Assembly (NCBI GenBank): GCA_021513695.1
Contig: CP084166.1
Span: 224,001 to 288,000 of the forward strand
Origin: Candidatus Heimdallarchaeum aukensis
Lineage (GTDB): Archaea > Asgardarchaeota > Heimdallarchaeia > Heimdallarchaeales > Heimdallarchaeaceae
DNA: 64,000 nt
Reading direction: 5' to 3'
In this document: positions 39,411 to 41,219 of the stretch, in pieces
Numbering within the stretch: the stretch's first letter is position 1
How the letters are laid out: each line of letters opens with the position of its first letter
Translations under genes and position numbers: made by a program
The notes under the pieces: model-generated
Database searches by the model: none
What the model was told of the DNA's origin: nothing
Seen by the model: the letters and a program-made list of their open reading frames with translations, nothing else

Positions 39411-41219
39411 ATGACAGATAATGGATATATCACTGGTTATGACAGAAAAAATAGAGAAAAATTTCCTATTTTCTTCCAAATTTTACTTTCTGAATGTTTT
39501 AAAGAAAATAATAATTCACTCCTTATTCTACCTGAAAATTTTATGGTAAATAGATTTGTTGAATATCTTTCCTTATTTCTTAGAACAAAAAACATTCAAA
39601 AAACTGCCTTTATTTTATCAGAACAAGGTGAAAAGATAAAATTTAACAATTTATTAACAGAAGAGAAACTCCCTTTTATATCTAGCACTTTAAATGTTGA
39701 AAGAAGAAAGATAAAGTATCAAACTAGTGATATTTTCTTTGTTACAGCTAAAATATTGAGAAACGATCTTTTAAGAGAAGTAATAGAAGCACACGAAATT
39801 GAATTGGCAATTTTTTTGCACGCTGATAAATCCAAAGAAGAAAATGTCTATTCTAACTTAGTACAGATTTTAAGTTCAAATTCAAAAATTAAGTTTGTTG
39901 GAATATCAAAACCTATTTTTAAAGAAAAACAAGAACTAATTTCTGTAATTGAAGCTCTAATGATAACAAATATATTCTACAAGTCATCGTATAGTTCTAT
40001 TATCCAAAGTTGTTTATATGAAAAGTCAAATAAGAAAATAGTTGTTCCTTTTACACAAGAGTTAAATCAAATCAAAGTTAACTTAAGAACTTTGGAAGGA
40101 AAAGTTAATTCAGTTTTAAGGAAGATGGGGATAAAAAATCCTTATTATTTGAGAAGAAATTTTAACAAGGAAATTCAAAATTTAAGAGATAAAAACTTTA
40201 ATGAGTCGACTGTTGAACAAATAATTAATCTTGGTATAGAAAGTATTTTTCTACAATCACTAATTGAAACTTTAGAATCTTCAAGTGTTCCTTTATGTTT
40301 AAAACTAATAGAAAACAACCTAGAAAAAATCTCTCACTACTCTTTCTCATCTTCACTGTTTGAAATATATACAGAACTTAAAGAATTGAAAGATGAAAAA
40401 CACCCGAAGATGGTAATTCTGGTTGAAGAAATATCCAAGGCTTTGAATACTCCTGTAAATAACTCTAATAAAGAAAAACCAACAGTTCTTGTATATTCTA
40501 GTCGCAGAGCAGTACTGCACGAGATAGCAGAAATTTTAATTAAGAAAGAAATAGAAAATTTTGTTATTTTGTCCACGCAGATGAAAAAGCAATTAGAAGA
40601 GTTAGAAAGATTCGATAAGAAGGAGTTTCAAATCGTTTTAGCATCTAAAAATATACCTCTAAATACAGATTTTACATTTTTGTATTCTCTCCCAAAGCAA
40701 AAAACTTTGTTTCGTGAACTAATTCAAAGACCTAATAGTAAGTGTATTATCACTCATAGGTCTATTGAAGAAAAAATATTCTATAAATGGAATGAGAGAA
40801 AAAATGGACAACTAATTAGAGAACTAGTTTCTGATAAGCAAGTAAAAGAAGCTTTGTTGTTCAATCAGCAACAGTTTTTTAATAAAAAGATGATGCAAAT
40901 GATTAATCCAAAAACCAAAGCTCTGATGACATTAAATAGATTTTTTGAGAAAAATAAGAAACAAAAAAAAGATTTAGAAAAAAGAGAATTGAAAGATAAT
41001 ATCTCTGAAAGTAGAGCACTTGATTTTTCCCTTATTCGCTTTCTTTCAGGGTGTTCTGAAGAAGAAGCACTGTTATTAACAGAAATAATTAATTTCTCAC
41101 AAATAAATGATTATGAAAAGTTAACTGTTAATGATTTAATTCCATCCTTTTCTGAAAATAGAGCCAGAGAGATTATTACCAAAATAAAGAATAGATCAAA
41201 GTTAATTTCAAAATTTTAA
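39411..41219 (+). CDS. Hef/XPF/FANCM-like SF2 helicase homolog with degenerate catalytic motifs and C-terminal HhH-like region; no nuclease domain
   Basis: It is collinear with the Hef helicase layout, but every catalytic motif differs:
- motif I position: LLILPENFMVNRF (expected PTGLGKT)
- motif II position: LAIFLHADKS (expected DEAH)
- motif III position: FVGISKP (expected TAS)
- motif VI position: FRELIQRPNS (expected QRxGRTGR)

Conserved non-catalytic blocks are FFVTAKILRNDLL, HPKMVILVEEI and PTVLVYSSRRAVLHEI. No GK[ST] occurs anywhere in the protein. Confidence 0.55.
   Translation: MTDNGYITGYDRKNREKFPIFFQILLSECFKENNNSLLILPENFMVNRFVEYLSLFLRTKNIQKTAFILSEQGEKIKFNNLLTEEKLPFISSTLNVERRKIKYQTSDIFFVTAKILRNDLLREVIEAHEIELAIFLHADKSKEENVYSNLVQILSSNSKIKFVGISKPIFKEKQELISVIEALMITNIFYKSSYSSIIQSCLYEKSNKKIVVPFTQELNQIKVNLRTLEGKVNSVLRKMGIKNPYYLRRNFNKEIQNLRDKNFNESTVEQIINLGIESIFLQSLIETLESSSVPLCLKLIENNLEKISHYSFSSSLFEIYTELKELKDEKHPKMVILVEEISKALNTPVNNSNKEKPTVLVYSSRRAVLHEIAEILIKKEIENFVILSTQMKKQLEELERFDKKEFQIVLASKNIPLNTDFTFLYSLPKQKTLFRELIQRPNSKCIITHRSIEEKIFYKWNERKNGQLIRELVSDKQVKEALLFNQQQFFNKKMMQMINPKTKALMTLNRFFEKNKKQKKDLEKRELKDNISESRALDFSLIRFLSGCSEEEALLLTEIINFSQINDYEKLTVNDLIPSFSENRAREIITKIKNRSKLISKF

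Follow-up and report, generated by a model that had tools for sequence, protein, structure and literature searches.

Pseudo-Hef, a Hef/FANCM-type helicase module without catalytic motifs or a nuclease domain in Heimdallarchaeaceae

The gene and its product

The stretch of DNA considered here, referred to as the window, comprises 64,000 nucleotides of contig CP084166.1 of Candidatus Heimdallarchaeum aukensis. It contains an open reading frame (ORF) for a protein of 602 amino acids (aa) that resembles the helicase module of archaeal Hef and eukaryotic FANCM, but in which the catalytic motifs are altered and no nuclease domain is found. This gene and its relatives are called pseudo-Hef. Here, we describe the protein, its family and its gene neighborhoods, and discuss the role that it may play in DNA repair or recombination.

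39411..41219 (including the stop codon), plus strand: pseudo-Hef gene, 602 aa, predicted catalytically dead and nuclease-less member of the Hef/FANCM family (ORF, profiles and the ratio of nonsynonymous to synonymous substitution rates, dN/dS)

The ORF starts with ATG and is uninterrupted over 602 codons, exactly as an earlier note on this DNA had delimited it. At the G+C content of this genome (~29%), stops make up ~8% (~1 in 12) of random codons, and by our own arithmetic the chance probability of an open frame of 602 codons is near 1e-22; given this stop frequency and length, chance does not account for the ORF. Its product is identical to the hypothetical protein K9W45_01060 of Candidatus Heimdallarchaeum aukensis, encoded on a contig of 3.08 Mb, which bears out the Asgard-like origin suspected in the note. 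The peptides quoted there were all found in the protein at positions consistent with their order: LPENFMVN (aa 40-47), TAKILRNDLL (aa 112-121), FLHAD (aa 135-139), SKP (aa 166-168), HPKM (aa 331-334), PTVLVYSSRRAVLHEIAEIL (aa 357-376) and ELIQRPNS (aa 436-443). In databases, members of the family are labeled "hypothetical protein" or, generically, "DEAD/DEAH box helicase family protein".

Homology and fold

The only Pfam match of the window protein is to Helicase_C and is sub-threshold (E=0.14). The NCBIfam Hef model (NF010337) matches with E=4.8e-15, aligning aa 82-411 to profile positions 85-430 of 781, at a score of 54.7 bits that lies below the curated equivalog cut-off of 610 bits, and a sequence search of the PDB returns FANCM as the sole match (E=6.9e-6). 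Word-indexed homologue searches gave only four close relatives, and an exhaustive HMMER search (1.84 billion cluster representatives) was needed to recover the family, which consists of ~11 clusters at 50% identity. The relatives are full-length (510-650 aa), are 22-36% identical, and are followed in the HMMER ranking by canonical Hef/FANCM helicases. When the family profile was compared to the PDB, the helicase domain of Pyrococcus furiosus Hef (1WP9) was matched with E=3.6e-47 over positions 8-436 and the FANCM translocase with E=2.4e-31, in an alignment that runs beyond RecA2 into the next helical element. Dicer and RIG-I follow with E=1e-10 to 1e-6 and human XPF with E=1.4e-3.

Hef and FANCM also lead the structure comparison. 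An AF2 (AlphaFold2) model built on an alignment of 35 sequences is confident (predicted local distance difference test, pLDDT, 82.8), while an earlier model based on four sequences (pLDDT 46.6) was discarded. With this model Foldseek finds 1WP9 as the best match (5.9e-22), then FANCM 9EL5 (3e-21), and XPF at rank 24. Profiles and predicted structure together place pseudo-Hef in the Hef/FANCM branch of the RIG-I-like clade of superfamily 2 (SF2) helicases, and the profile searches and structure comparison proposed in the earlier note brought up Hef and FANCM, and not an unrelated SF2 family, as best matches. The retained Hef/FANCM-type SF2 scaffold claimed there is thus supported by profiles, by a confident model and by the motif-by-motif alignment described below. 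Its wider label, Hef/XPF-like, holds only in part: the Hef/FANCM affinity stands (3.6e-47 and 2.4e-31), and the match to eukaryotic XPF is far weaker (1.4e-3). On the sequence matches, the likeness to XPF is one of kind, an analogy and not a demonstrated descent.

The following parts of the scaffold were delimited:

39468..40025, plus strand: RecA1-like domain, aa 20-205, in which motif Ic is retained while motifs I, Ia, II and III persist as relics
39744..39773, plus strand: motif Ib/Ic-type block TAKILRNDLL (canonical TPQxxxNDL), with N118 and D119 near-invariant
40026..40400, plus strand: all-helical insertion domain (Hel2i or "thumb"), aa 206-330 (model helices 216-325, dN/dS 0.11)
40401..40760, plus strand: RecA2-like domain, aa 331-450, starting with an invariant HPK (alignments, dN/dS 0.08)
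40761..41000, plus strand: post-RecA2 helices, aa 451-530, with a long two-helix element resembling a "pincer" or "mincer" (model helices 476-497 and 500-529)

Through RecA1, helical insert and RecA2, pseudo-Hef is collinear with Hef over about 430 residues, and the insert, a hallmark of the Hef/FANCM/XPF/RIG-I clade, aligns to those of Hef and FANCM. Retained throughout the family are the T..xxxND(L/I) block, the HPK that opens RecA2, the helical insert and the long post-RecA2 helices; N118, D119, H331, P332 and K333 are invariant or nearly so among 35 dead and canonical sequences. The most conserved family-specific segment is ITHRSxEE..FYK (aa 446-460; ITHRSxEE starts at aa 447, in the closing residues of the RecA2-like domain), and the second most conserved segment is the motif-Ic block (aa 108-122). 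Also among the most conserved blocks are NP[KR]TKA at the bend of the post-RecA2 helix pair (aa 490-504) and a block NQQxxF in the post-RecA2 helices. In FANCM, a two-helix "mincer" element and the insertion domain recognize branched DNA (PMC12263834). By analogy, the post-RecA2 helices and insert of pseudo-Hef may be equivalent to these parts and may likewise recognize branched DNA. The net charge of the members ranges from +3 to +31.

Loss of the catalytic motifs

In SF2 helicases, motifs I, II and VI have established roles in ATP use, providing the P-loop, the catalytic glutamate and the arginine finger. In the window protein three of the motif positions read as follows:

39528..39551, plus strand: position of motif I, LPENFMVN replacing LPTGLGKT, P-loop lost (alignments)
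39813..39827, plus strand: position of motif II, FLHAD replacing FDE[AC]H, catalytic Glu lost (alignments)
39906..39914, plus strand: position of motif III, SKP replacing TAS/SAT (alignments)

Twenty-three pseudo-Hef members were aligned motif by motif with canonical Hefs of Hodarchaeales, other Asgard lineages and metagenomic archaea. In 23/23 members, each of the motifs I, Ia, II, III, V and VI has been either substituted or deleted, whereas the canonical comparators are intact (GKT, DExH, TAS, EEGLD and QRxGRxGR), leaving aside truncated or partial ones in which V or VI is missing. Across the family, motif I reads LP.NF.. instead of LPTGLGKT, so that Gly-Lys-Thr is gone, and unrelated residues stand in place of PTKPL in motif Ia. 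Motif II has become LHAD, D.AH or similar instead of DE[AC]H, with the glutamate kept in one member only, and motif III has become SKP, TRY or similar instead of TAS. A deletion of 4-7 residues takes out the EEGLD of motif V, and motif VI (QRxGRxGR) is likewise deleted, with ELIQRPNS remaining at 40716-40739 in the window protein.

The loss of motifs I, II, III and VI had been claimed in the earlier note at exactly these strings, and the alignment to canonical Hefs puts the strings there. The accompanying claim that GK[ST] is absent was confirmed by a search through the whole window protein, which found none. A DEKH at aa 328-331 is a chance look-alike and part of the conserved ..HPK block. 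As read from the sequences, pseudo-Hef cannot be an ATPase or a motor, because P-loop, catalytic glutamate and arginine finger are all missing.

It is extremely doubtful that pseudo-Hef is a cryptic enzyme that hydrolyzes nucleoside triphosphates through non-canonical residues, or senses RNA as RIG-I and Dicer helicases do. Gly-Lys-Thr of the P-loop, the glutamate of DExH and motif VI with its arginine finger are gone, motifs V and VI are physically deleted, the affinity to Hef/FANCM exceeds that to Dicer/RIG-I by 20-35 orders of magnitude, and the gene neighbors are DNA-repair genes.

Absence of the nuclease and nature of the C-terminal domain

Pfam searches with a permissive cut-off of E≤1 detect no ERCC4 domain in the window protein. 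Only ~70 residues follow the helicase module, which are too few for an ERCC4 domain to fit. The earlier note had seen no ERCC4 nuclease, and this holds: the lone ERK of the protein (aa 462-464) is a chance look-alike that lies in a helix after RecA2, outside any ERCC4 setting. A separately encoded nuclease was searched for with a hidden Markov model (HMM) of ERCC4 made from the last 260 residues in each of 93 canonical Asgard Hefs, and no ERCC4 ORF was found in the 64-kb window or in 24 related loci.

41007..41216, plus strand: C-terminal five-helix domain, aa 533-602 (AF2 model)

In the AF2 model the last ~66 residues are folded into five helices. The note had also stated that the C-terminus resembles a tandem helix-hairpin-helix, (HhH)2, region. 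This resemblance could not be established: two independent hhalign comparisons with the Hef (HhH)2 gave E=0.033 and 0.09, both with a probability below 2%, and searches of Pfam and the PDB with the domain alone gave no match. Both hairpin glycines of (HhH)2 are replaced in pseudo-Hef, and the domain is entirely missing from the members P0007, P0009, P0073 and L018. The register to Hef (HhH)2 was identical both times, with equal spacing of the two hairpin-helix alanines, and it is plausible on this sequence comparison that the domain is a degenerate (HhH)2 relic.

These observations bear on the idea of a split XPF, in which pseudo-Hef would pair through its (HhH)2-like C-terminus with a separately encoded short ERCC4-(HhH)2 nuclease, reproducing the XPF arrangement in trans. 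The five modeled helices, the recurring register and alanine spacing and the helicase-like module of XPF, which is also ATP-dead (PMC7048804), speak for it. However, the similarity to (HhH)2 is non-significant, its hairpin glycines are not kept, an ERCC4 ORF was not found near the gene in the window or the 24 related loci, and four members do without the domain; we regard a split XPF as unlikely.

As a separate possibility, binding of PCNA via a PCNA-interacting protein (PIP) box was considered and rejected, as the motif Qxx[LIM]xx[FY][FY] was found in none of the 12 pseudo-Hef members searched.

Distribution, phylogeny and selection

All members with taxon names belong to Heimdallarchaeaceae or "Heimdallarchaeota" (metagenome-assembled genomes). 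In a scan of one genome per GTDB species, with an alignment of seven sequences as query, 11 genomes matched, 10 of which are labeled Heimdallarchaeota or Heimdallarchaeum and one only as Asgard at the kingdom level. Each of these 11 genomes, the complete chromosome of H. endolithica (CP084167.1) included, has one pseudo-Hef locus, which suggests that pseudo-Hef is a single-copy orthologue and not a set of paralogues. Full-length Hefs of the canonical kind, which combine helicase, ERCC4 and HhH in 740-820 aa, occur widely in Hodarchaeales, Promethearchaeota, Thor-, Hermod- and Odinarchaeota. A Heimdallarchaeaceae label does not occur among the 120 best canonical Hef matches, which is not proof of absence. 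A literature search found no description of the pseudo-Hef family, and Hef, XPF, XPD and RadA go unmentioned in the paper on the Heimdallarchaeum genomes.

In a neighbor-joining tree with bootstrap, the dead family and P0035 lie on a long branch with 100% support, without a resolved sister among canonical Hefs, and the family HMM scores the Asgard Hefs listed within a narrow range of 163-197 bits. P0096/P0035 represents a second degenerate Hef lineage of 752-754 aa (L024:8001-10259, on a 2.85-Mb metagenomic contig). Motif I is lost in proteins of the P0035 type (LPLNSKHE), EDAH and SSQPGS are partly kept, ERCC4 is not detectable in their longer C-terminus, and the gene adjoins four tandem DinB-family genes. 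Hodarchaeales-type genomes contain full-length Hef (P0103-P0135, about 750 aa) plus helicase-only forms (P0049, P0100-P0102) of 514-521 aa that are 81-86% identical to the full-length proteins and have intact motifs; these short forms may be gene-call artefacts.

The dN/dS of pseudo-Hef is 0.16-0.23 against orthologues of 87% and 75% identity, and that of each folded domain taken alone is 0.08-0.25. Because the whole gene and every folded domain are constrained in this way, the gene is, as judged from these substitution ratios, not a pseudogene but held by purifying selection. The loss of all catalytic motifs, the low identity of members (22-36%) inside one taxonomic family and an evolution faster than that of its neighbors (dN/dS about 0.2 vs 0.02-0.06 for radA) could also be expected of a decaying relic, that is, a functionless Hef copy on its way to loss. 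To this we give practically no credence, since the data on selection and conservation already contradict it: in >25 loci the ORF is intact over its full length, each folded domain has a dN/dS far below 1, the structure is modeled with confidence, and both the family-specific blocks and a 14-nucleotide (nt) overlap with the XPD gene, described next, are conserved.

Association with XPD and other neighbors of the family

In a sister subclade, ~25% identical to the window protein, a gene for an XPD/Rad3-family helicase lies directly downstream of pseudo-Hef on the same strand in 17 contigs. The stop of pseudo-Hef and the start of XPD overlap by exactly 14 nt in 11/13 loci measured. In ten of these (L004, L007, L009, L014-L016, L019, L020, L022 and L023) the apparent XPD start is TTG; L012 has the same overlap with ATG as the start. 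The unusually rigid geometry of this junction suggests translational coupling of the two genes. The operonic XPD is an intact protein in which GVGKT, DEAH, four Fe-S cysteines and motif VI are all present, and its best PDB matches are archaeal XPDs. A further XPD fragment, on L029 and without an upstream pseudo-Hef, was set aside for its chimeric contig end, which carries PEPCK and a Bacteroidota-type gene.

The XPD partner also matches a generic type-IV DinG model, and no cas genes were seen near it at these loci. A role in anti-phage defense was rejected, since a PADLOC search with pseudo-Hef gave no match and cas genes are not found near the XPD partner.

In the subclade of the window protein, the pseudo-Hef member P0007 is overlapped at its end by 8 nt by the gene of a RadB-like AAA ATPase of 343 aa (L005:9616-10647, plus strand). 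This P-loop ATPase has weak matches to RadB (E=1e-5) and the RFC small subunit (1e-6), and none in the PDB; a distant relative of it is encoded at 54917-55378 of the window. No repair genes stand beside P0005, P0008, P0009 or the basal P0012.

The radA neighborhood and other features of the window

The genes that flank pseudo-Hef in the window are:

38948..39349, plus strand: 133-aa gene upstream of pseudo-Hef, syntenic in L001, L002 and L013 (dN/dS 0.04-0.08)
41228..41479, minus strand: 83-aa antisense gene between pseudo-Hef and radA, kept in L001, L002 and L013 (dN/dS 0.10-0.33)
41578..42669, plus strand: full-length RadA/Rad51-type recombinase with N-terminal HhH and RecA core (Pfam Rad51 1.9e-51, HHH_5)

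The order of 133-aa gene, a gap of 61 nt, pseudo-Hef, antisense gene and radA is identical in three more Heimdallarchaeum-type contigs (L001, L002 and L013). The product of the 133-aa gene is strongly conserved (94-95% identity), occurs only in the genus Heimdallarchaeum and has no match in Pfam, NCBIfam or PADLOC. The RadA neighbor scores 230 bits with the NCBIfam RadA model, matches Sulfolobus solfataricus RadA and human RAD51 in the PDB at ~1e-43 along its entire length, and shows 97-98% identity between species. By these matches it is a bona fide recombinase and not the RadA paralog that the earlier note had taken it for. Its gene forms a transcription unit of its own.

The adjacency itself, which the note had singled out, exists within the genus Heimdallarchaeum, where radA follows pseudo-Hef at a distance of 358 nt in 4/4 loci; it does not extend to other lineages, as no radA was found near pseudo-Hef at the loci examined outside the genus, and since the antisense gene lies between them the two genes are not co-transcribed. 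That pseudo-Hef works with the recombinase as a mediator or regulator, for instance through the loading or restraint of RadA filaments where forks have stalled, is quite improbable on this evidence. The invariant placement of radA in the four loci would agree with it, as would the RadB-like ATPase gene overlapping another member of the same subclade and the function of Hef and FANCM at stalled forks alongside recombination (PMC7776575). However, only genomes at ≥75% identity, in which the whole neighborhood is syntenic, show the adjacency, the intervening antisense gene speaks against an operon, and the RadB-like match is weak (E=1e-5).

Several other features of the window were recorded. A conserved intergenic block of ~160 nt (37632-37797) lies between the genes at 36858-37595 and 38948-39349. 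Four genomes, with flanking genes that differ at dS 0.27-0.86, share it at 98-100% identity, and within it a long imperfect hairpin (GGAGAGTGTGAGTATAGTGTAAA...TTTACACTACACTCTCC) precedes a run of T8 (fold z-score -2.8). An Rfam search of this block gave no match, and it is a candidate small RNA or regulatory element on the basis of these sequence features. Directly after it follows an IS481-type element (~37797-38900) with a transposase ORF at 37854-38792 (plus strand; Pfam rve 2e-17 plus helix-turn-helix domains), which is not present at the corresponding site of L001, L002 or H. endolithica L013.

Proteins of 443 aa (44359-45690, plus strand) and 245 aa (36858-37595, plus strand) are paralogues of one family, named p443, which has no match in Pfam or the PDB. 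Beyond the window, members are encoded at L011:3959-5326, L031:2995-3888 (minus strand) and L005:3143-4831 (minus strand), and the family recurs no more than 5 kb from pseudo-Hef in four divergent lineages of the subclade to which the window protein belongs. A divergent repair-type SF2 helicase of 703 aa (Pfam DEAD and Helicase_C) is encoded at 59282-61393 on the plus strand and matches NCBIfam models of the Hel308/Ski2 type with E=1e-38 to 1e-47, far below their cut-offs. At 33989-35443 on the minus strand, within a patch of raised G+C (0.36), lies the gene of a TnpB-type transposon nuclease of 484 aa with a Cas12f1-like TNB domain (Pfam 1.6e-9).

A proposed role for pseudo-Hef

The reading that we favor, and think reasonably likely, is that pseudo-Hef is a non-catalytic, Hef-derived scaffold of DNA repair or recombination that is maintained by selection and is a probable accessory subunit of XPD in one subclade. 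It descends from the archaeal Hef/FANCM helicase module, with RecA1, helical insert, RecA2 and pincer kept, with the motifs needed to bind and hydrolyze ATP lost, and with no nuclease domain. Selection maintains it, as an apparently single-copy gene, across Heimdallarchaeaceae, where it may act as a non-enzymatic subunit that recognizes DNA structures, serves as a scaffold, or both. In the one major subclade in which it appears to be translationally coupled to an intact XPD/Rad3-type 5'-3' helicase, it would physically partner XPD and position or regulate it on branched or damaged DNA. Within the genus Heimdallarchaeum, pseudo-Hef would have moved away from XPD to its present place beside radA. 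We infer a structural role on DNA, and with it DNA binding and a part in repair, from the selection on the whole fold, the retention of blocks such as T..ILRNDLLR that face nucleic acid in related helicases, the positive charge and the repair neighbors.

Some observations count against this proposal. The adjacency to XPD is limited to one subclade, with XPD adjacent neither in the basal P0012 nor in the window's own subclade. In the XPD-linked genomes, unrelated downstream genes (DegV, EamA and PAC2) are syntenic too, and inherited gene order may therefore contribute to the count of co-occurrences with XPD. Motif Ia, normally a nucleic-acid contact, is lost in the family.

XPF and XPD belong to one pathway in eukaryotic nucleotide excision repair. 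A stronger claim would be that pseudo-Hef is an obligate regulatory or targeting subunit of archaeal XPD, and that its inactivation shares ancestry with the dead module of eukaryotic XPF. If so, an inactive Hef module working with XPD would predate eukaryotes, and XPF would later have regained, or kept, its nuclease in cis. We consider this very improbable; nothing in the comparisons made here points to a shared descent of the two inactivations. The more modest proposal of a non-catalytic scaffold is of interest because we know of no partner of the archaeal XPD helicase, and our literature search found none described. The pseudo-Hef/XPD operon thus offers a testable candidate for such a partner, and a simple system for asking what an ATP-dead module of the Hef/XPF type adds to repair.

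Comparison with known systems

Eukaryotes have split the ancestral Hef into specialists, with a dead helicase in XPF, a dead nuclease in FANCM, and ERCC1, EME1 and FAAP24 as dead partners; XPF and ERCC1 heterodimerize through (HhH)2. The pseudo-Hef family would represent the same route of inactivation, taken within Asgard archaea. With archaeal Hef (1WP9), pseudo-Hef shares the order of RecA1, insert and RecA2 as well as the T..xxxND and HPK signature blocks, but it has no P-loop, DExH, motifs III, V and VI or ERCC4 domain, and (HhH)2 is not demonstrable. FANCM/Mph1 (9EL5) is the second-best match in both sequence and fold. FANCM is itself half-dead, its nuclease being inactive (PMC4838364). 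It has an active ATPase and a degenerate ERCC4 domain with FAAP24 as partner, whereas pseudo-Hef has neither; in addition, pseudo-Hef has only 602 aa and no long C-terminal extension, while the matches of eukaryotic length have about 1,800-2,100 aa.

A stand-alone module without nuclease is also found in the Hef of Thermoplasma acidophilum (PMC4838364) and in helicase-only Hefs of 500-540 aa, such as those of Hodarchaeales (514-521 aa). Those proteins keep all ATPase motifs and several have a C-terminal PIP box, whereas pseudo-Hef has neither. Eukaryotic XPF resembles pseudo-Hef in that both are ATP-dead SF2 modules of one clade with a helical insert, and in XPF this module serves as a rigid scaffold (PMC7048804). 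However, XPF has an active ERCC4 nuclease (GDxnERKxxxD) and (HhH)2 in cis where pseudo-Hef has no nuclease domain, and its RecA2 carries inserts where that of pseudo-Hef carries deletions (PMC7048804).

Each half of the phenotype therefore has a precedent, the dead helicase in XPF and the missing nuclease in T. acidophilum Hef. A stand-alone Hef module that lacks both activities, forms a conserved family and is operonic with XPD was not found in our literature search. The reach of the present case is limited to one archaeal family, with no sequence tie specific to XPF and with function inferred throughout. Within this range, pseudo-Hef appears as a stand-alone Hef module from which both activities are gone and which would be kept under selection for its shape alone, and as such it illustrates, as a clean case from nature, how pseudo-enzymes evolve within the Hef/XPF/FANCM family.

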